A DNA stretch of 5,935 bases from a virus. The position numbers were made by a program, and so were the translations under genes. Under the pieces are notes generated by a model. That model was not told where the DNA came from. It saw only the letters and a list, made by a program, of their open reading frames with translations, and searched no databases. The stretch covers positions 1 to 5,935 of IMG/VR virus record IMGVR_UViG_3300045988_007371. One strand, 5' to 3'. Below are positions 1-5,935 of this stretch, in pieces (the stretch's first letter is position 1; each line of letters opens with the position of its first letter).

Positions 1-99
1 AAGAAGCTTTGCAAACGAAATTGATTTAGAACTAATCAGAAGGGATTATGAAAATGGGACGACATCGTAAGAAAATGAGCGGCGCAAAAGATCGCCGAA
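1..99. repeat. Terminal redundancy, copy 1 (circular-genome assembly overlap)
   Basis: By direct comparison, bases 1-99 (aagaagctttgcaaacgaaattg...aaagatcgccgaa) are identical to 5837-5935. The repeat cuts through coding sequence: it holds the 3' end of the 75-aa ORF and the 5' part of the J-like ORF. That is what a circular genome written past its own start looks like. Implied unit length is 5,836 nt. Confidence 0.97.
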
Positions 100-192: not shown

Positions 193-432
193 ATGGAACA
201 TCTGTATTATGGACTGTGGGACAACGTAGCAAAGTGCTATGCGTGGGTAGGCGAAAGCAAGAATAACGCAACCTTTGCGCGTATGTGCAATGTTATGGAA
301 AAGGACGAAAAGACTTTTGTCGGACAGAGTCCGGAAGACTACATCGGATACCGGCTGGCAACATTCAACGATGAGACCGGCACCTTCACCAACGACAAAG
401 AGAAAGCATGGGAGGGCAAGCCGCATGAATAA
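193..432 (+). CDS. Conserved microvirus nonstructural protein (gokushovirus VP5/ORF5-like), 79 aa
   Basis: This is the track ORF 160..432. I prefer the ATG at 193 (MEHLYYGLWDNVAKCYAW...), which has AAGGA at 181-185 seven nt upstream. Position 160 is a GTG lying inside the J-like gene. The pattern Y..WD......W....N...A.R ... SPEDYIGYRLATFNDETGTF resembles the PEDY/F..(Y/L)..G.FDD.TG motif of the small nonstructural protein found in many gokushoviruses. The function call comes from memory of that family, not from a search. Confidence 0.75.
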   Translation: MEHLYYGLWDNVAKCYAWVGESKNNATFARMCNVMEKDEKTFVGQSPEDYIGYRLATFNDETGTFTNDKEKAWEGKPHE

Positions 433-823
433 ACGATACGAAGAAGGGCGAGAGCCCTTCTTTTCTGAAAGCGGAGAAAAATTCAGAAAGCAATACGTCT
501 GGACAAAAGACGAAAAAGGGCAAGAAGTGCTGCAAGAAACAGAACCGATCGACATTCAGCAAGAAATCGAAAGCTATGCAGACGAATGCGACATCAAAAA
601 CATTGTCCGAAAAGCAAGTTTTGACCCGCAGTTCCTTGAAAGCTTATCCGAAGGAGCAATGACGGGGGAAGAAGTGGACATCACCGAATTTCCGCAAAAC
701 ATTCATGAGTATCACCGCATGATTGCGACCGCACAGGCAAACGCAATGAAGCTTGAAGAGCTACAAAAAATGGAAGCGGAAAAAGCAAAAGCAGAACCTG
801 AAGCAAAGGAGGAAGAAAAGTGA
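425..823 (+). CDS. Internal scaffolding protein (VP3-like), 132 aa
   Basis: Same frame as track ORF 275..823, but position 275 is a TTG with no RBS. The ATG at 425 has GGAGG at 411-415 nine nt upstream and overlaps the upstream stop (ATGAATAA, 425-432). The product MNKRYEEGREPFF...ESYADECDIKNIVRKASFDPQFLESL...ITEFPQNIHEYHRMIATAQANAMKLEE... is acidic and helical, about 130 aa, and sits immediately upstream of VP1. All of this fits gokushovirus VP3. Its stop TGA (821-823) overlaps the VP1 GTG start. Confidence 0.8.
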   Translation: MNKRYEEGREPFFSESGEKFRKQYVWTKDEKGQEVLQETEPIDIQQEIESYADECDIKNIVRKASFDPQFLESLSEGAMTGEEVDITEFPQNIHEYHRMIATAQANAMKLEELQKMEAEKAKAEPEAKEEEK

Positions 824-2511
824 ATCGAAACAATGAACGACACTTCAACCAAATCCCAGAAATGAAAGCAAGTCGAACACGATTCAACCGAGACCAGACG
901 ATTTTAACAACATTTGATTCCGGGAAATTGATTCCGTTTTACGTTGACGAAGTATTGCCGGGCGACACATTTAGAGTAAACACGACAGCAATCATCAGAA
1001 TGACGACACCGAAGTTTCCAGTGATGGATGATGCATTCATCGACTTCTATTACTTCTATTGTCCAAATCGCATCCTATGGAAAAACTTTAAACAATTCAT
1101 GGGAGAAGTAGAAAATAAACCCTGGATGCCAGTAAAAACGTACAAAGTCCCAGAAATAAAAATCGAAGGAAGTGAAACCTCAGCAAAACCACTCGAAAAA
1201 AGTATCTTAGATTACATGGGCGTTCCAACGAAAGTAAAAAGACCCTTCAAAATTAACGCATTGCCAATCAGAGCATATGTAATGATCTGGAACGAATTTT
1301 TTAGAGACGAAAATGTAGGCAATGCGGCAGTATGGTCAGACGAAGACAGTGATGTAACATACGCACAAAGCTACAATGAAAACTCAACCAACGCGGACAA
1401 AATGCAAAAAGAGTTGAATGAAGCAATAACCGGCGGGCTCTGTCTACCGGTAAACAAGTTCCACGACTACTTCTCAAGCTGTCTCCCCTATGCACAACGT
1501 GGGCCGGAAGTGACGCTGCCAATGCAAGGCAATGCAAGAATATCCGGATACACAAATGATAAATTTAACGAAAAAGCACCACTATATGCAAACAGCTTTT
1601 TTGACGGAAGCACAAACCCGGGCAACATCAAAGACAAAATGTATGCAATCGCAGCAGATGGAGGCACAGGATCAGCATACTTAGCCATTGGAGACGGAAC
1701 AGGCAGTGACCATAAAGTAGTATACCTAGGCGCAGACCTTGGAAGCGTAACCGCAGCAACCATCAACGACTTGCGAAAAGCCGTAGCAGTGCAACAGTAC
1801 TACGAGGCGCTGGCAAGAGGCGGCAGCCGTTACCGCGAGCAGGTACAAGCATTGTGGGATGTAATTATCTCAGATAAAACTGTACAGATCCCGGAATATC
1901 TTGGCGGCGGCAGATACCGCGTCAATGTTAACCAGATCGTACAGACAAGCGGACAGCAGACCGACAAAGACACGCCTATTGGTGAAACCGGTGCAATGTC
2001 AGTAACACCCATCAATGAAAGCAGTTTTACGAAATCTTTCGAGGAACACGGATTCGTAATCGGTGTATGTTGTGTACGACACAATCACAGTTACCAGCAA
2101 GGGCTTGAACGTTTCTGGAGTCGAACGGACAGACTGGACTATTACGTACCTCAGTTCGCAAATCTTGGCGAACAGCCTGTCAAAAAGAAAGAAATCATGC
2201 TAACCGGCACAGCAACAGACGAAGAAACTTTCGGTTACCAGGAAGCATGGGCAGACTACAGAATGAAGCCGAATCGAGTATCCGGCCTCATGAGAAGCAA
2301 CGCAATCGGAACGCTGGACTTCTGGCACTATGCCGACAACTATTCAACCGTACCAACACTATCGCAGGAGTGGATGGCAGAAGGAAAGAAAGAAATCGCA
2401 AGAACATTGATCGTGCAGGATGAGCCGCAGTTCTTCGGCGCAATCCGAGTAGCAAACAAAACAACAAGACGTATGCCGTTGTACAGCGTACCGGGCTTGT
2501 ACAAACTGTAA
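820..2511 (+). CDS. Major capsid protein (VP1, phiX174 F-like), 563 aa
   Basis: GTG start at 820, preceded by AAGGAGG (806-812) with a 7-nt spacer. The N-terminal region RNNERHFNQIPEMKASRTRFNRDQTILTTFDSGKLIPFYVDEVLPGDTFRVNTTAIIRMTTPKFPVMDDAFIDFYYFYCPNRILW matches the conserved Microviridae capsid N-terminus (..HF..vP...i.RS.F......T.F..G.LiP....EvlPGDtf...). The size is typical of gokushovirus VP1. Confidence 0.97.
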   Translation: MNRNNERHFNQIPEMKASRTRFNRDQTILTTFDSGKLIPFYVDEVLPGDTFRVNTTAIIRMTTPKFPVMDDAFIDFYYFYCPNRILWKNFKQFMGEVENKPWMPVKTYKVPEIKIEGSETSAKPLEKSILDYMGVPTKVKRPFKINALPIRAYVMIWNEFFRDENVGNAAVWSDEDSDVTYAQSYNENSTNADKMQKELNEAITGGLCLPVNKFHDYFSSCLPYAQRGPEVTLPMQGNARISGYTNDKFNEKAPLYANSFFDGSTNPGNIKDKMYAIAADGGTGSAYLAIGDGTGSDHKVVYLGADLGSVTAATINDLRKAVAVQQYYEALARGGSRYREQVQALWDVIISDKTVQIPEYLGGGRYRVNVNQIVQTSGQQTDKDTPIGETGAMSVTPINESSFTKSFEEHGFVIGVCCVRHNHSYQQGLERFWSRTDRLDYYVPQFANLGEQPVKKKEIMLTGTATDEETFGYQEAWADYRMKPNRVSGLMRSNAIGTLDFWHYADNYSTVPTLSQEWMAEGKKEIARTLIVQDEPQFFGAIRVANKTTRRMPLYSVPGLYKL

Positions 2512-2550: not shown

Positions 2551-3414
2551 ATGAGCGCATTATCAGGACTCTTAACAGGGCTAAACGTAGCCGGAAACAT
2601 TGCAAGCACAATTGGAACATTTGCAAACGCTGGTAAACAAGTCGCCGGAATATTTGGCGGATGGGGTCAGGAAGGCAACAGCCAAAGCCAAGGCGGCAGT
2701 GTAAGCCAAGGCGGCGGTCATTCAGAAAGCGGAAGCTATTCGGGCACAAACGTGCAACAGGTAAACGACTGGCTAAAACAAGCATATGCATACCAAGGGC
2801 AAGAAGCAGCCATGCAAGGTAAATACAACAGTCAGAGTATGCTTAAACAAATGGGGTACAACACCTTACAAGCAATCATGCAAGGCATATATAACCACAT
2901 TGAAAACGGCGTAGCAATGAACTACAACAGTGCAGAAGCACTAGCAAACCGTGAATGGCAAGAACACATGTCAAGCACAGCATACCAGCGTGCAGTTGAA
3001 GACATGAAAAAAGCGGGACTTAATCCAATCTTAGCTTTTTCAAACGGCGGAGCAAGCACACCGGGGGGAAGCGCAGGAACAATTAGCGGTGCAAGTATGG
3101 GACTAGCAAGCAGCAGCGCACTAGGAGTAAGCAGAAGCGGCGGATTCGTACCGAACGCATACGAAAGCAACAGCTGGTCGAAAAGCGACTGGTACAACGC
3201 CGCAGAAAGCTGGCAACAGATGCTCAGTAATACACACATGACGCCCTATGGACTGACAAAAGCATTAACAAAAATTGCAAACGGCACAGACGATGCAATC
3301 AAAGATGCAGTAAAGCCAACAACAAAACAACCAAACAAGAAAAACTACATTAAACCGCAAGACAAAACGGGCAAATACGGAGAAAAAAGGGAACCGGGTG
3401 ATTATTTAAAATGA
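2551..3414 (+). CDS. Minor capsid / DNA pilot protein (VP2, phiX174 H-like), 287 aa
   Basis: It has a Gly/Ala-rich hydrophobic N-terminus (MSALSGLLTGLNVAGNIASTIGTFANAG), then a G/S/Q low-complexity region. It also carries NREWQEHMSSTAYQRAVEDMKKAGLNPILAF, which I recognise as the conserved core of gokushovirus VP2 (..sNTAyQR.v.DlkaAGLNP.La). Position after VP1 and before the rep gene fits. Confidence 0.92.
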   Translation: MSALSGLLTGLNVAGNIASTIGTFANAGKQVAGIFGGWGQEGNSQSQGGSVSQGGGHSESGSYSGTNVQQVNDWLKQAYAYQGQEAAMQGKYNSQSMLKQMGYNTLQAIMQGIYNHIENGVAMNYNSAEALANREWQEHMSSTAYQRAVEDMKKAGLNPILAFSNGGASTPGGSAGTISGASMGLASSSALGVSRSGGFVPNAYESNSWSKSDWYNAAESWQQMLSNTHMTPYGLTKALTKIANGTDDAIKDAVKPTTKQPNKKNYIKPQDKTGKYGEKREPGDYLK

Positions 3415-4430
3415 GTTGCTACAAGCCATTAATAAGGCTGTACAACCCGAACGATAAAGACATTAGCGGGAGGGTGTATTCACTCTCCCGCATTTCTCAG
3501 TTAGCGGGAAAACAGCTCAAATATGAAGATCTGATGTACAGGAAAGATATAATGTTGATACCATGCGGACAATGTATCGGATGTAGAATCAGACAAAGAG
3601 AGGACTGGACAACACGAATAGAATTAGAAGCACGAGATTATCCAAAAGAACAAGTCTGGTTTATTACGCTAACCTATGATGACGATCATGTACCGGGCAT
3701 GATAATAAACACAGGCGAAATCATGCGAAAAGTGCAATACGTCTGGAAGCCGGGAGAGAAGCGCCCTGAAAGCGTCCAAACGTTACTATATCCTGACATT
3801 CAAAAATTCTTAAAACGTCTCAGAAAGGCTTATAGGGGCAAATTACGCTATTTTGTAGCGGGAGAATACGGAGAACAGACAGCAAGACCGCACTATCACA
3901 TGATTCTATACGGGTGGCAACCAACAGACCTTGAACACCTGTACAAGATACAACACAACGGATACTTTACAAGTAAATGGCTAGAAAACCTATGGGGCAT
4001 GGGTCAAATACAGATAGCACAAGCAGTGCCAGAAACCTATAGATATGTTGCAGGGTACGTCACAAAAAAAATGTATGAGATAGACGGCCAAAAAGCAAAC
4101 GCATACTACGAACTAGGGCAAACAAAACCATTCGCATGCATGAGCCTAAAGCCGGGTTTAGGCGAACACTATTACCAAGAGCACAAAGAAGAGATCTGGC
4201 GGCAAGGATATATCCAATGCACAAACGGCAAACACGCACAAATTCCGCGCTATTATGAAAAAATGATGGAAGCAGAAAACCCACAAAGATTATGGAGAAT
4301 TAAACAGAACAGACAAGCAGCAGCAATTGCAGAAAACCGGCTAAAGTACGAAAATGCAGACTTTGCAGAACAATGTAAAACAAAAGAGAGAGTAATAAAG
4401 AAGCAGATGAAGAAGAGAGGGACACTTTAA
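3411..4430 (+). CDS. Replication initiation protein (VP4, phiX174 A-like HUH endonuclease), 339 aa
   Basis: The ATG overlaps the VP2 stop (ATGA, 3411-3414). Rolling-circle Rep motifs are present. These are a Cys cluster PCGQCIGCR (aa 51-59), motif I FITLTY (aa 84-89), HUH motif II PHYHMILYG (HYH at nt 3891-3899) and motif III YVAGYVTKK (nt 4044-4070). Motif III has two tyrosines spaced YxxxY, as in the phiX174 A protein. Confidence 0.96.
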   Translation: MSCYKPLIRLYNPNDKDISGRVYSLSRISQLAGKQLKYEDLMYRKDIMLIPCGQCIGCRIRQREDWTTRIELEARDYPKEQVWFITLTYDDDHVPGMIINTGEIMRKVQYVWKPGEKRPESVQTLLYPDIQKFLKRLRKAYRGKLRYFVAGEYGEQTARPHYHMILYGWQPTDLEHLYKIQHNGYFTSKWLENLWGMGQIQIAQAVPETYRYVAGYVTKKMYEIDGQKANAYYELGQTKPFACMSLKPGLGEHYYQEHKEEIWRQGYIQCTNGKHAQIPRYYEKMMEAENPQRLWRIKQNRQAAAIAENRLKYENADFAEQCKTKERVIKKQMKKRGTL

Positions 4431-4448: not shown

Positions 4449-4482
4449 TAGCCCAGTGCCTATCAAGTAAGGTACTGGGCTA
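4449..4482 (+). other. Stem-loop immediately downstream of rep (weak terminator or ssDNA structural/origin element)
   Basis: TAGCCCAGTgCC (4449-4460) pairs with GGtACTGGGCTA (4471-4482). This gives 12 positions with one G:T mismatch and a 10-nt loop, TATCAAGTAA. No clean T-tract follows (ttgtcgtc), so it is not a textbook terminator. It is preceded by the tandem AGTGTCA AGTGTCA (4432-4438 and 4440-4446) and a small GACACT/AGTGTC hairpin spanning the rep stop codon. Confidence 0.5.
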
Positions 4483-4537
4483 TTGTCGTCTAAGGACGCC
4501 ATGTATCGAACTATTCAGTCTATCAAATAATCCAATT

Positions 4538-4582
4538 CGCACGTGCGCACACGCGCGATAGCGCGCACGCGCGCACGCGCGA
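4538..4582. repeat. GC-rich alternating purine-pyrimidine (CG/CA) tract with nested palindromes and short tandem repeats
   Basis: The sequence is cgcacgtgcgcacacgcgcg-ata-gcgcgcacgcgcgcacgcgcg. It contains perfect Y/R alternation over 4538-4557 (20 nt) and 4561-4581 (21 nt). It also holds the 10-bp palindrome CGCACGTGCG (4538-4547), the tandem GCGCGCAC GCGCGCAC (4561-4576), and the imperfect direct repeat GCGCAC(AC)GCGCGATA (4545-4560 and 4571-4584). It stands out sharply against the A-rich remainder of the genome. Confidence 0.9.
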
Positions 4583-4600
4583 TATAATATTAACTTGTTG

Positions 4601-4621
4601 TAGGAGTAGTAGTAGTAGTAG
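4601..4621. repeat. (TAG)n trinucleotide microsatellite
   Basis: The sequence tag gag tag tag tag tag tag has five perfect TAG units (4607-4621), preceded by TAG and GAG. It reads as stop codons in one + frame. It also explains the spurious YYYYY run in the minus-strand track ORF 4480..4674. Confidence 0.95.
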
Positions 4622-4794
4622 TGGAAAAGTTGAAAAGTACTAAAATTTAACGTTAAAGCGTAAATAAAAAGCAAAAAACGCCGTTGAAAGTTTTGTTGAA
4701 AAATTGTTGAATTGTTGAAAGTCCGTCAAAATGACGAAAATCATTGTGCAACATTTTGTGGAAAACCTGTTGAAAGTGTTGAAAGTGTTGAAAA
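4621..4794 (+). repeat. Array of direct GTTGAAA-type heptamer repeats (iteron-like), ending in three tandem 9-mers
   Basis: Perfect GTTGAAA occurs at 4629, 4683, 4695, 4714, 4769, 4778 and 4787. Variants are GTGGAAA at 4621 and 4758, GTTGAAT at 4706, GTTAAAG at 4652 and GTCAAAA at 4725. All share one orientation. The last three form cTGTTGAAA gTGTTGAAA gTGTTGAAA (4767-4793). With equal base frequencies a given 7-mer is expected about 0.36 times in 5.8 kb. Confidence 0.9.
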
Positions 4795-5153
4795 CGCGCA
4801 CAGCGCTTACAATGAATGGATTAGCCGAGCTCCGCATACGCTCCGCACGGCAAGGCGCTAAAGCGCTTTCGAAACAAAGGAGCAAAACCGGGTTGCAAGA
4901 GAAGGTTACAATTTTATTACAAAACAGCAAAATCATTGAAAAACCTATTGACAAGGAGTATAATAAAGTCAGAGGAAGGAAGGTGTTCAGAATGACGCTG
5001 AAAAGCTACAAAATTGAAATGACAAACAAAGAAACAGGCAAAAGAGAAATTCGCCACACGCTGGCAGAAAGCAAAAAACTTGCAAAGTGTCTCATCTGGA
5101 CAAAAAAAGACATCATAAGCCAATGGAAGATAAACAAAATAGAAGAGGGTTAA
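4731..5153 (+). CDS. Hypothetical protein, maximal ORF model (140 aa); N-terminal 87 codons uncertain
   Basis: Track ORF. For: the frame stays open for about 91 codons upstream of 4992 in an A-rich strand, where I estimate roughly 6% of random codons would be stops. That is unlikely by chance. Against: there is no RBS before the ATG at 4731. The 5' end is built from the GTTGAAA repeats (encoding LKVLKVLK), and the consensus promoter lies inside it. An intermediate start is TTG at 4893, with AAGGAG (4877-4882) 10 nt upstream. This is an alternative model of the same frame as the 4992 entry. Confidence 0.4.
   Translation: MTKIIVQHFVENLLKVLKVLKTRTALTMNGLAELRIRSARQGAKALSKQRSKTGLQEKVTILLQNSKIIEKPIDKEYNKVRGRKVFRMTLKSYKIEMTNKETGKREIRHTLAESKKLAKCLIWTKKDIISQWKINKIEEG
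4829..4874. promoter_or_regulatory. Operator-like phased direct repeat and overlapping palindromes upstream of the accessory-cassette promoter
   Basis: GCTCCGCA occurs at 4829-4836 and 4840-4847, an 11-nt period. An 18-bp near-palindrome AAGGCGCT-AA-AGCGCTTT (4852-4869) contains the perfect palindrome AAAGCGCTTT (4860-4869) and overlaps TTTCGAAA (4867-4874). TTACAA is also repeated at 4906 and 4917, again 11 nt apart, just upstream of the -35 box. The regulatory role is inferred. Confidence 0.4.
4936..4964 (+). promoter_or_regulatory. Sigma70-type promoter for the accessory cassette
   Basis: The -35 box is TTGAAA (4936-4941). A spacer of exactly 17 nt (4942-4958) separates it from a consensus -10 TATAAT (4959-4964). 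The predicted start near 4971 lies just upstream of the GGAAGGAAGGTG RBS and the ATG at 4992. Confidence 0.65.
4992..5153 (+). CDS. Hypothetical small protein, promoter-proximal start model (53 aa)
   Basis: The ATG at 4992 has GGAAGGAAGGTG ending 6 nt upstream and sits about 20 nt downstream of the predicted transcription start. The product is MTLKSYKIEMTNKETGKREIRHTLAESKKLAKCLIWTKKDIISQWKINKIEEG. It is lysine-rich, has no hydrophobic segment and matches no family I recognise. The stop at 5151-5153 is 5 nt before the M15 start. Confidence 0.5.
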   Translation: MTLKSYKIEMTNKETGKREIRHTLAESKKLAKCLIWTKKDIISQWKINKIEEG

Positions 5154-5158
5154 CAAAC

Positions 5159-5551
5159 ATGGAAATCAAAGCATATGTAGTAGACGAGCAAGGAAACGAA
5201 CAAATCACAGACCACTTCAAAGTGAAAGAGTTTGCTTGCAAAGACGGGTCACCAATCGTATTCGTTGACGAATATCTAGCAGTCATTCTAGAGATCGCAA
5301 GAAAAAAAATCAATAAGCCGATTGTCATCACGAGCGGATACCGCACAGTAAGCCACAACAAAAAAGTAGGCGGAGCAAAATATAGCTATCACATGCGCGG
5401 CATGGCGGCAGACATCAGAGCGAACGGAGTGACGCCAAAAGAACTTGCAAAAGTACTAAACGACATCGTACCAAACAGCGGCGGAATCATCGTATATAAC
5501 AATTGGGTACATTTCGATACAAGAAATGAAAAATACAGAAAGGGGGTATAA
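5159..5551 (+). CDS. Peptidase M15 family (M15A/Peptidase_M15_3, Zn D-Ala-D-Ala carboxypeptidase-like) cell-wall hydrolase, 130 aa
   Basis: Same frame as track ORF 5087..5551. I prefer the ATG at 5159 (MEIKAYVV...), which has GAGGG (5145-5149) 9 nt upstream and lies just after the upstream stop. The sequence FKVKEFACKDGS...KPIVITSGYRTVSHNKKVGGAKYSYHMRGMAADI...VHFDTR matches the M15 signature SGYR...N..vGG...S.H..G.A.D....vH.D. The Zn ligands are H78-x6-D85 and H118 (H78 codon at 5390-5392). There is no signal peptide or TM segment. Confidence 0.93.
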   Translation: MEIKAYVVDEQGNEQITDHFKVKEFACKDGSPIVFVDEYLAVILEIARKKINKPIVITSGYRTVSHNKKVGGAKYSYHMRGMAADIRANGVTPKELAKVLNDIVPNSGGIIVYNNWVHFDTRNEKYRKGV

Positions 5552-5552
5552 A

Positions 5553-5675
5553 ATGGCGCTGATTTCCATTAAAGACGTCAAGCAAGCAATCCGCATTATG
5601 ATGCAGATTCTCGAAAAACTTGACGAGATCTATCACGCGCTGCACGACAGCATCAACGAAAACGAAAAGGAGTAA
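5553..5675 (+). CDS. Hypothetical small helical protein, 40 aa
   Basis: Hand translation gives MALISIKDVKQAIRIMMQILEKLDEIYHALHDSINENEKE, with stop TAA at 5673-5675. A GGGGG run (5542-5546) lies 6 nt upstream of the ATG. The ORF exactly fills the gap between the M15 gene and the next ORF, starting 1 nt after the M15 stop. It is too short for the ORF track and has no recognisable family. Confidence 0.55.
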   Translation: MALISIKDVKQAIRIMMQILEKLDEIYHALHDSINENEKE

Positions 5676-5678
5676 ACC

Positions 5679-5906
5679 ATGATGCACAAGACATGGAACG
5701 TAAGAGACCAGACCACAGAAGCACTAGAAGAGCTACTCATACGAAAATTAAAAGAAATTGATGACAATTACAAAATGCTTAAAAAAGTGTCAAATATCGA
5801 AGACGCTAAAAAGCTAGTAGATGAAATGTGGCGAATAAGAAGCTTTGCAAACGAAATTGATTTAGAACTAATCAGAAGGGATTATGAAAATGGGACGACA
5901 TCGTAA
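5679..5906 (+). CDS. Hypothetical coiled-coil-like protein, 75 aa (crosses the circular junction)
   Basis: Track ORF. AAGGAG (5667-5672) lies 6 nt upstream of the ATG at 5679. The product MMHKTWNVRDQTTEALEELLIRKLKEIDDNYKMLKKVSNIEDAKKLVDEMWRIRSFANEIDLELIRRDYENGTTS is charged and helical and matches no family I recognise. Its last 23 nt overlap the J-like gene in another frame (window 48-70, equivalent to 5884-5906). Confidence 0.7.
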   Translation: MMHKTWNVRDQTTEALEELLIRKLKEIDDNYKMLKKVSNIEDAKKLVDEMWRIRSFANEIDLELIRRDYENGTTS

Positions 5907-5935
5907 GAAAATGAGCGGCGCAAAAGATCGCCGAA
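5837..5935. repeat. Terminal redundancy, copy 2 (circular-genome assembly overlap)
   Basis: Identical to bases 1-99. It contains the 3' end of the 75-aa ORF and a truncated second copy of the J-like ORF, starting at 5884/5890. Confidence 0.97.

Follow-up and report, generated by a model that had tools for sequence, protein, structure and literature searches.

A gokushovirus M15 peptidase, fixed in its clade, is encoded in a genome without a holin or signal peptide detectable by hydropathy scales

Genome organization

The window, that is, the whole stretch of 5,935 nt that was analysed (IMG/VR record IMGVR_UViG_3300045988_007371), contains a microvirus genome that is circular and complete at 5,836 nt; a 99-nt terminal overlap stems from assembly, and within this terminal duplicate the gene for the small basic protein restarts at position 5884. 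The features are listed in Table 1. Every credible gene was found on the + strand, whose sequence has a strong A-over-T skew, and GGAGG-type Shine-Dalgarno (SD) sequences precede most of the genes in a survey of ribosome-binding sites. The genome is circular and of ssDNA size, with VP1, VP2, VP3, VP4 and VP5 all on one strand, and the records nearest to it are classified as Gokushovirinae; by sequence it was assigned to a Gokushovirinae-type microvirus. The nearest GenBank record was that of Human gut gokushovirus SH-CHD5 (KX513868; 87.7% nucleotide identity over 87% of the genome). The peptidase of that phage (ARQ16010.1), annotated as 'peptidase M15' in GenBank, shares 90.8% of its amino acids with the window's, a difference of strain or species level only. 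In the Dulem viruses, the ORF equivalent to the small basic protein is annotated as 'DNA binding protein'.

A largely non-coding stretch of roughly 700 nt lies between VP4 and the M15 peptidase gene and holds a conserved control region with a hairpin, a GC-rich palindrome and iterons. A scan of the window against Rfam returned no family. The 140-aa ORF of this stretch ('orf140'), which the preliminary description had counted as an upstream neighbour of the peptidase, is probably not a gene. Conservation was limited to its first ~60 codons, and an alignment longer than 110 aa was obtained for just two loci; an SD is missing, and the ORF encloses a promoter-like site. The DNA under its start was 78–85% identical even in otherwise divergent microviruses, and its N-terminal part probably represents a translation of the conserved DNA iterons. 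On the same grounds (iteron overlap, the ~60 conserved codons, the missing SD and the internal promoter-like site) it was rejected as a partner gene of the peptidase. Of 81 relatives, 70 had a promoter-like site matching at least 10 of 12 positions in the 400 nt that precede M15, a weak figure, as it carries no shuffled control.

Table 1. Features of the window and the evidence for them
Feature	Position	Strand	Evidence or remarks
Small basic protein, 42 aa	48..176	+	PHROG 10695; found in 80/80 relatives
VP5-like protein (PHROG 'DNA binding protein')	193..432	+	PHROG 1670, E 9e-16; SD before ATG 193
VP3 internal scaffolding protein	425..823	+	Pfam Chlamy_scaf, PHROG 24309
VP1 major capsid protein	820..2511	+	Pfam Phage_F, E 1e-132
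VP2 DNA pilot protein	2551..3414	+	PHROG 8742, E 1e-125
Gly/Ala-rich VP2 N-terminal segment (LLTGLNVAGNIASTIGTFA)	2569..2625	+	KD 1.19; dG_app +5.6
VP4 replication initiator	3411..4430	+	Pfam PF23343, PHROG 942
Conserved non-coding control region	4449..4800	.	Repeats, nucleotide conservation
Control region, hairpin	4449-4482		
Control region, GC-rich palindrome	4537-4582		
Control region, ~6 GTTGAAAGT iterons	4683-4790		
'orf140'	4731..5153	+	Doubtful ORF, 140 aa
Sigma-70-type promoter-like site, TTGAAA-17-TATAAT	4936..4964	+	11/12 match; 195 nt before the peptidase start
SD of the peptidase gene, GAAGAGGG	5142..5149	+	9 nt before ATG 5159; RBS survey, all genes
M15_3 zinc peptidase gene, 130 aa (predicted LAS fold)	5159..5551	+	Pfam, PHROG, AlphaFold2, Foldseek
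orf40, 40-aa protein, predicted amphipathic helix	5553..5675	+	Strong SD AAGGGGG; start 1 nt past the peptidase stop
orf75, 75-aa protein, predicted hydrophilic and helical	5679..5906	+	SD AAGGAG

The M15 peptidase gene and its product

The peptidase gene runs from ATG 5159 to the TAA at 5549-5551, and its product, of pI 9.3, is predicted to be cytoplasmic. The longest ORF in this frame begins upstream, at GTG 5087; the start was placed at ATG 5159 because GAAGAGGG lies 9 nt upstream and because the homologues measure 129-130 aa from the equivalent residue.

The protein matched the Pfam family PF08291 (Peptidase_M15_3) with an E-value of 7.1e-23 and 81.2 bits (cut-off, 23.2) over model positions 2-108 of 108, and PHROG 894 ('endolysin') with an E-value of 2.7e-42. 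In an alignment of 36 homologues the predicted Zn ligands H78-x6-D85 and H118 were invariant, and so were S59-G-Y-R-T63, W116 and D120. An intact M15 zinc peptidase with the H-x6-D...H ligands had been described for this gokushovirus-type microvirus, and both the family match and the conservation of the catalytic residues bear this out. The H-x6-D stretch aligned with the same motif of the Zn DD-carboxypeptidase of Streptomyces albus (1LBU; E 4e-5).

The AlphaFold2 model of the protein had a pLDDT of 93.8 and a pTM of 0.88. Its top Foldseek match was again 1LBU (E 5e-5, 27% identity), and the other neighbours were VanY, VanXYc, the Hedgehog N-domains (Shh-N), the Ply500 endolysin domain, ChiX, and the LysECD7, RB49 and LysB4 endolysins. 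The model can be assigned with confidence to the LAS, or Hedgehog/DD-peptidase, fold. The median dN/dS against 59 relatives was ~0.16, and the gene is under purifying selection. The predicted activity is a zinc-dependent cleavage of peptidoglycan, and on grounds of homology the gene would provide the muralytic enzyme of a holin-endolysin cassette.

Search for an export route

TM segments were called with two hydropathy scales, that of Kyte and Doolittle (threshold of 1.6 over 19 residues) and the biological scale of Hessa. Positive controls for the latter were phiX174 E (dG_app -3.4) and candidate TM miniproteins of three relatives, L020 (-2.4), L088 (-1.4) and L127 (+2.4). None of the + strand ORFs of at least 20 aa in the window reached 1.6 on the Kyte-Doolittle scale, the maximum being 1.19 at the N-terminus of VP2. 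When all three + frames were read from stop to stop on the Hessa scale, the VP2 N-terminus again scored best, at +5.6 kcal/mol, with everything else at +9 or above. Of all segments in the genome, this Gly/Ala-rich one alone comes near membrane propensity; for comparison, dG_app is +3.8 at the N-terminus of phiX174 H. No small TM lysis protein of the phiX174 E type was found in the three + frames, with phiX174 E itself as the positive control.

The N-terminus of the peptidase (MEIKAYVVDEQGNEQ) is acidic and hydrophilic and showed no signal-peptide or SAR features; the maximum over 19 residues on the Kyte-Doolittle scale was 1.16, in an internal helix. The alternative N-terminal extension from GTG 5087 is likewise hydrophilic. 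The preliminary description had seen no hydrophobic segment in the enzyme or its neighbours, and the check proposed there on the ORFs of the cassette, run here with the hydropathy scales, gave no TM-grade segment in any + frame. Judged by these scales, holin, pinholin, SAR domain and signal peptide are all absent from the genome.

Many minus-strand ORFs of the window are hydrophobic because the coding strand is A-rich and T-poor. Alternative and antisense frames across M15 were not kept open in the relatives (median open runs of 34-70 codons), and the minus-strand ORFs were rejected as holins, being a base-composition artefact and not conserved. The junction downstream of VP2 was compared between the window, L127 and L183-L188, with regard to the TM miniprotein described below for the Oscillibacter/Dulem group. 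In the window, the stop of VP2 overlaps the start of VP4, and there is therefore no room for a miniprotein gene of that type.

Distribution of the peptidase in the clade

A relative of the window's peptidase was encoded by 263 IMG/VR contigs. At E<=1e-10 there were 1,413 homologues, of which the best 120 were all on microvirus-size contigs. For the fixation count, relatives were picked by VP4 alone (at least 90% identity; the 80 closest). M15 was present in 77 of these 80 and in all 43 that were circularly closed, the three exceptions being truncated contigs; the gene is fixed in this gokushovirus clade.

At a deeper level of the backbone M15 is, judged by sequence, accessory. The sister genomes L083-L087, whose VP1 and VP4 are ~45% and ~46% identical to the window's, have kept orf40 and the VP genes and have no M15; the slot holds other small hydrophilic ORFs, and no TM ORF was found in these genomes. 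Since such M15-less relatives exist, the enzyme would not be strictly required by the backbone.

A hydropathy scan of 124 clade genomes for intergenic TM ORFs retained only that of L020. This ORF encodes a single-TM protein of 55 aa and overlaps the peptidase start by 22 nt, a classic holin architecture; it is a singleton in IMG/VR and was rejected as a general partner of the enzyme. The other candidates were discarded as well: L033 is a chimera of two microviruses, L074 carries DNA in excess of a full gene set, and the TM ORF of L057 is nested out of frame within VP1. A 17-kb contig (P0095) considered as a possible host-integrated copy proved to be a three-fold concatemer. In a few other M15-positive microviruses, KT264784, MG945689 and L094, no TM segment was found. 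The holin-less state of M15 microviruses recurs, and is not the rule.

The genes downstream of the peptidase

orf40 was found in 78 of the 80 relatives with a median identity of 87%, as against 67% for M15; no other small protein of the lineage is as well conserved, and its conservation exceeds even that of the capsid. M15-less genomes with a VP1 of only ~45% identity encode it too, and there it is 64-75% identical. Profile searches with orf40 gave no family match and no homology to holins, and no homology of orf40 or orf75 to the TM miniproteins of Clostridia prophages was found. orf75 was present in 62 of the 80 relatives and also in M15-less records such as KT264790. By their sequence distribution, both are genes of the backbone of the lineage, and orf40 is not specific to M15. 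The earlier view of these small downstream helical ORFs as part of a cassette with the peptidase does not stand, given their presence in M15-less relatives.

Homologues with TM partners

The short M15 endolysins of tailed phages (FP_Toutatis gp86, Aster orf20 and NVP1105O_21 of Vibrio phage 1.105.O; 115-137 aa, 44-48% identity) resemble the window's enzyme in having the same motifs, no cell-wall-binding domain and no signal peptide. Each of their genes has one or two neighbours that encode TM proteins of holin, XhlA or spanin-like type, with dG_app values from -2.4 to +2.0, whereas no such gene occurs in the window. In Faecalibacterium phage FP_Toutatis, gp86 is followed by gp87, with an N-terminal TM segment, and then by the XhlA-like gp88; in Faecalibacterium phage Aster, orf20 is followed by one intervening ORF and then by orf22 and orf23; and in Vibrio phage 1.105.O two 'TMhelix' proteins lie directly downstream of M15.

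A second group of homologues, formed by the prophage of Oscillibacter sp. PC13 and by Dulem virus 189, 195 and 203, has the gokushovirus backbone and an M15 peptidase that shares 50-53% of its residues with the window's. Here, unlike in the window, the peptidase gene lies between the small basic protein and VP5, and the gene for a conserved single-TM miniprotein of 35-58 aa, with the motif LKLLRYACAALK-WIN, directly follows VP2; orf40 and orf75 are absent. For at least one member, the integration site is a dif-like palindrome beside a gene for a Xer-type recombinase.

The proposal that the M15 domain be traced to a tailed-phage endolysin or to a host was borne out in part. Endolysin-type homologues do sit in tailed-phage lysis cassettes, but the donor was not resolved: identities to the Faecalibacterium-phage, Vibrio-phage and Oscillibacter-prophage proteins all fall within 44-53%, and a distance tree of the sequences in hand was rejected as a means of choosing between them.

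Host

A capsid-alignment scan was made of 185,579 species genomes. The closest genome-embedded capsid relatives, 40-46% identical and carried on contigs of 20-177 kb, were all in Clostridia, including the cultured Muriventricola aceti H5_61 and Oscillibacter sp. PC13. A scan of bacterial genomes with the single capsid sequence gave no matches. Between the window's M15 peptidase and that of the prophage in Oscillibacter sp. PC13, identity is 51-53%; this prophage, carried on NZ_FOXE01000003.1, is bounded by imperfect 32-nt repeats with a palindromic core, has ~5.2 kb between its dif-like repeats and a TM ORF of 42 aa, and lies beside a tyrosine recombinase gene. Its dif-like motif was absent from the window. 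Capsid relatives of only 40-46% identity, together with the GGAGG-type SDs, point to a probable host among the Clostridia, likely in the Oscillospiraceae. Such a host is expected to have a thick wall.

Relation to earlier work

Both the M15 gene and the endolysin role proposed for it have been known since 2012, and the novelty implied by the preliminary description does not hold. Roux et al. (2012) reported M15_3 peptidase genes in 11 human-associated Microviridae, including 5 gokushoviruses, showed their horizontal acquisition, with the gokushovirus copies clustering with Faecalibacterium and Anaerofustis genes, and proposed the endolysin role (PMC3394797). Peptidases were later described as recurrent lysis-associated accessory genes of microviruses (Kirchberger et al., 2022; PMC9239249), and M15 peptidases are present in cultured Occultatumvirinae (PMC11499846). 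The literature also agrees that a lysis gene of the phiX174 E type is absent from gokushoviruses (PMC7062461).

The question of export, as raised in the preliminary description, stands. No account of the enzyme crossing the membrane was found in the papers searched, no holin-less lysis mechanism was found described for the Microviridae, and the passages of Roux et al. (2012) consulted here contain no discussion of a clade-wide absence of holins (PMC3394797). Here the export puzzle is extended to a whole clade and set against relatives that have TM partners: a constrained and fixed peptidase occurs, by hydropathy scales and with the exception of L020, without a membrane protein in a large gut clade, while a small TM protein accompanies the homologues examined in tailed phages and in the second group of gokushoviruses. 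In the mammalian gut, gokushoviruses count among the most abundant ssDNA phages, and this comparative picture sharpens the question of how they exit. Lysis of Clostridia by gokushoviruses might be approached experimentally through the prophage of Oscillibacter sp. PC13, a cultured strain.

Proposed role of the peptidase and alternatives

The account favoured here, with moderate confidence, is that of a captured endolysin that helps to breach the wall of a likely Clostridia host from within and is released by a holin-free route. The enzyme would be a single-domain LAS-fold Zn2+ peptidoglycan peptidase, made in the cytoplasm and captured, with the holin left behind, from among the short M15 endolysins that tailed phages carry. 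Endolysin ancestry is suggested because homologues of 115-137 aa adjoin TM proteins in tailed-phage lysis cassettes. As no holin, pinholin, SAR domain or signal peptide was detected, the enzyme could not gate its own release. It would accumulate in the cytoplasm and reach the wall only after the membrane had been compromised by something else, and this membrane step may be an M15-independent release mechanism of the backbone that is also used by the M15-less sisters. A route needing neither M15 nor a TM protein is suggested because the sister genomes have neither. Late in infection the peptidase would cut the peptide stems or cross-links of the wall, allowing the 25-30 nm capsids to leave. We infer in this way an activity on the host wall that would speed or complete lysis and would not be the sole lysis system. 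The candidate triggers, all speculative, are orf40, host factors and, less likely, VP2. An endolysin without a way across the membrane is mechanistically incomplete.

The gap might be closed by orf40. As the best candidate for a non-TM factor of the backbone, it would breach or depolarise the Clostridia membrane through its amphipathic helix, acting like an antimicrobial peptide and thereby releasing or activating the soluble endolysin without any TM protein. We give this a small chance. The gene has the position of a lysis partner, tightly coupled to the peptidase (1 nt) and with a strong SD, and the hydrophobic moment of the protein is 0.70 over residues 6-23; its net charge of -3 and mean hydrophobicity of ~0 are, however, unlike those of cationic membrane-active peptides, and neither the holins nor the TM miniproteins are homologous to it. 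Its rank as the most conserved small protein (87% median, against 67% for M15) and its retention in M15-less, TM-less sisters, which also need an exit, fit the proposal, but would be explained equally well by a small coiled-coil regulator or a factor of replication or assembly. The Oscillibacter/Dulem group has a TM miniprotein and no orf40; a strict anticorrelation of the two was nevertheless rejected, as L020 has both and the M15-positive MG945689 neither, and few independent lineages are involved. If true, release of the orf40 type would amount to holin-free lysis and would also explain the exit of M15-less gokushoviruses. An enzyme acting at entry is rather unlikely. A few packaged or virion-borne copies of the basic protein (pI 9.3) would then digest a thick wall, as expected of the likely Clostridia host, so that capsid and VP2 reach the membrane, and the export paradox would dissolve, no export route being needed. 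T=1 capsids, however, offer little spare volume, and the 130-aa single-domain protein has no capsid-attachment domain. M15-less sister viruses share the capsid and pilot type, and the homologues of characterised context are all in lysis cassettes beside TM proteins and not among structural genes; it is because of the tailed-phage cassettes that entry was considered less likely. The trace amounts of Ebor Gp7 found in virions lend the idea some support (PMC11980548).

It is very unlikely that the scans missed a holin, such as one encoded on the minus strand or overprinted, or a VP2 that also makes lesions in the membrane. Roux et al. (2012) did note one complementary-strand ORF beside a microviral peptidase (PMC3394797). 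The hydrophobic appearance of many minus-strand ORFs in the window is nevertheless due to the A-rich, T-poor coding strand, and the antisense and alternative frames across M15, with median runs of 34-70 codons, are not kept open. No + frame segment passed either scale in the window, nor in 120 relatives. The N-terminus of VP2 is weakly membrane-like, as in phiX174 H, but a pilot protein alone is not known to lyse; E-defective mutants of phiX174 do not lyse though they make H. The least probable reading is a non-lytic role, such as wall remodelling, superinfection exclusion or that of a nearly neutral passenger gene. A backbone that exists without M15, and an export route that is not encoded, would suit it. 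Fixation in 43 of 43 closed genomes and purifying selection, in a 5.8-kb genome with space at a premium, argue against it, as do the catalytic-site residues, all invariant, and, precursors apart, it is not obvious what a wall peptidase would cleave inside the cytoplasm.

Comparison with known systems

The phiX174 E protein is an overprinted TM protein of 91 aa that inhibits MraY and blocks wall synthesis, with no enzymatic activity of its own. It too serves lysis in a microvirus, and nothing comparable (dG_app -3.4 for E) is encoded in the window. To our knowledge, holin-independent endolysins, whether Sec-exported, of the SAR type, with a C-terminal TM segment or chaperone-assisted, all rely on a hydrophobic export element of their own or on a dedicated chaperone. 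Ms6 LysA/Gp1 is an example of these; the window's enzyme has no hydrophobic export element. The closest solved structure, by sequence and by fold, is that of the Zn D-Ala-D-Ala carboxypeptidase of Streptomyces albus G (1LBU; MEROPS M15A), a secreted bacterial enzyme of 213 aa with an extra N-terminal domain that is absent from the window's enzyme.

Among microviruses, Ebor Gp7 is, like the window's M15, an accessory peptidoglycan hydrolase, and it is the only microviral one with demonstrated activity (PMC11980548). Ebor belongs to another subfamily, the Tainavirinae, and infects Rhodobacter, a diderm host, and the best HHpred match of Gp7 is 6SSC, not an M15 structure; unlike the window, Ebor also encodes a predicted membrane protein of 45 aa, Gp1 (PMC11980548). 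The M15_3 peptidases of human-gut Gokushovirinae and Alpavirinae described in 2012 share with the window's the Pfam family, size, genome type, habitat, proposed role and horizontal origin (PMC3394797). The Oscillibacter group and the window's clade together provide a natural comparison of holin-bearing and holin-less systems.

Membrane miniprotein genes

A conserved gene for a miniprotein with a single transmembrane (TM) segment was found directly 3' of the gene for VP2, the DNA pilot protein, in the gokushovirus prophage of Oscillibacter sp. PC13 and in Dulem viruses 189, 195 and 203 (Table). The motif LKLLRYACAALK-WIN is common to the versions in L127 (the Oscillibacter contig) and L188 (from the Dulem virus comparison), and a related version is present in L187, from the same comparison. 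The miniprotein is a candidate holin or lysis protein of gokushoviruses. Its annotation does not go beyond "hypothetical" in Dulem viruses 189 and 195, and Dulem virus 203 has no annotation for it.

Small single-TM ORFs, intergenic and mutually non-homologous, were also detected in gokushovirus prophages and genomes without the M15 peptidase gene, mostly inside Clostridia contigs. Membrane miniproteins may be a widespread, fast-evolving feature of gokushovirus phages of this kind. Within the clade of close relatives of the window, L020 is the sole member with such an ORF (55 aa); since no relative of it was found elsewhere in IMG/VR, the gene may have been acquired recently or have arisen de novo. 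A borderline-hydrophobic segment in an alternative frame (LLYGH..LLC..PSA.G.L; dG_app 2.5-3.0 kcal/mol) recurs in four relatives whose VP1/VP2 type differs from that of the window. It presumably lies inside the gene for VP1, the major capsid protein, and could reflect chance or an overprinted ORF.

Coordinates of the features described. L numbers denote related microvirus genomes or contigs that contain them.
Feature	Sequence	Position	Remark
Conserved non-coding control region	window	4449-4983	
Hairpin	window	4449-4482	in control region
GC-rich palindrome	window	4537-4582	in control region
Iterons GTTGAAAGT, about six	window	4683-4790	in control region
orf40	window	5553-5675	40 aa, amphipathic helix
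Single-TM miniprotein	L127	10600-10728	
Single-TM miniprotein	L183	1409-1516	
Single-TM miniprotein	L187	2607-2783	
Single-TM miniprotein	L188	about 2577-2786	
Small single-TM ORF	L089	6589-6927	M15-less
Small single-TM ORF	L096	6686-6922	M15-less
Small single-TM ORF	L119	3043-3357	M15-less
Small single-TM ORF	L090	12297-12449	M15-less
Small single-TM ORF	L092	8727-8945	M15-less
Small single-TM ORF	L121	10758-10910	M15-less
Small single-TM ORF	L088	5148-5264	M15-less
Single-TM ORF	L020	2775-2942	22-nt overlap with peptidase start
LLYGH..LLC..PSA.G.L	L032	5377	
LLYGH..LLC..PSA.G.L	L045	3533	
LLYGH..LLC..PSA.G.L	L056	4913	
LLYGH..LLC..PSA.G.L	L081	3202	

Genome organization and base composition

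An exact direct repeat of 99 nt is present at both termini of the window (1-99 and 5837-5935); the genome is circularly closed and 5,836 nt long. The gene for the small basic protein (48-176) has a second start at 5884, in the terminal duplicate. The coding (+) strand shows a strong A-over-T skew over its whole length (AT skew 0.22-0.46), because of which antisense ORFs all resemble membrane proteins and chance hydrophobic ORFs are rare on the sense strand.

The non-coding control region is conserved (78-85% DNA identity over 4552-4983) in otherwise divergent gokushoviruses, M15-less genomes included. It matched no Rfam family and may be an origin or have a regulatory role. The product of orf40, directly 3' of the peptidase gene, is more conserved than the capsid protein (median identity of 87% within the clade), and is 64-75% identical in genomes with a VP1 identity of only about 45%; no protein family was matched.

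Three contigs in public collections are assembly artefacts: in L033 two different microviruses are fused into a chimera, L074 carries 2.3 kb of surplus DNA past a complete gene set, and L131 is one genome in a three-fold concatemer.

The Oscillibacter prophage

The prophage (NZ_FOXE01000003.1, 5697-10956; about 5.2 kb) resides in a cultured Clostridia isolate; its genes include one for an M15 peptidase, and it also has a 42-aa TM ORF. It is bordered by imperfect 32-nt direct repeats with the palindromic core ATTGAACAAAAT-TTTT-ATTTTGTTCAAT, a motif absent from the window, and is adjoined by a tyrosine recombinase gene. Borders and recombinase are reminiscent of enterobacterial gokushoviruses, for which integration of the XerCD/dif type has been described.
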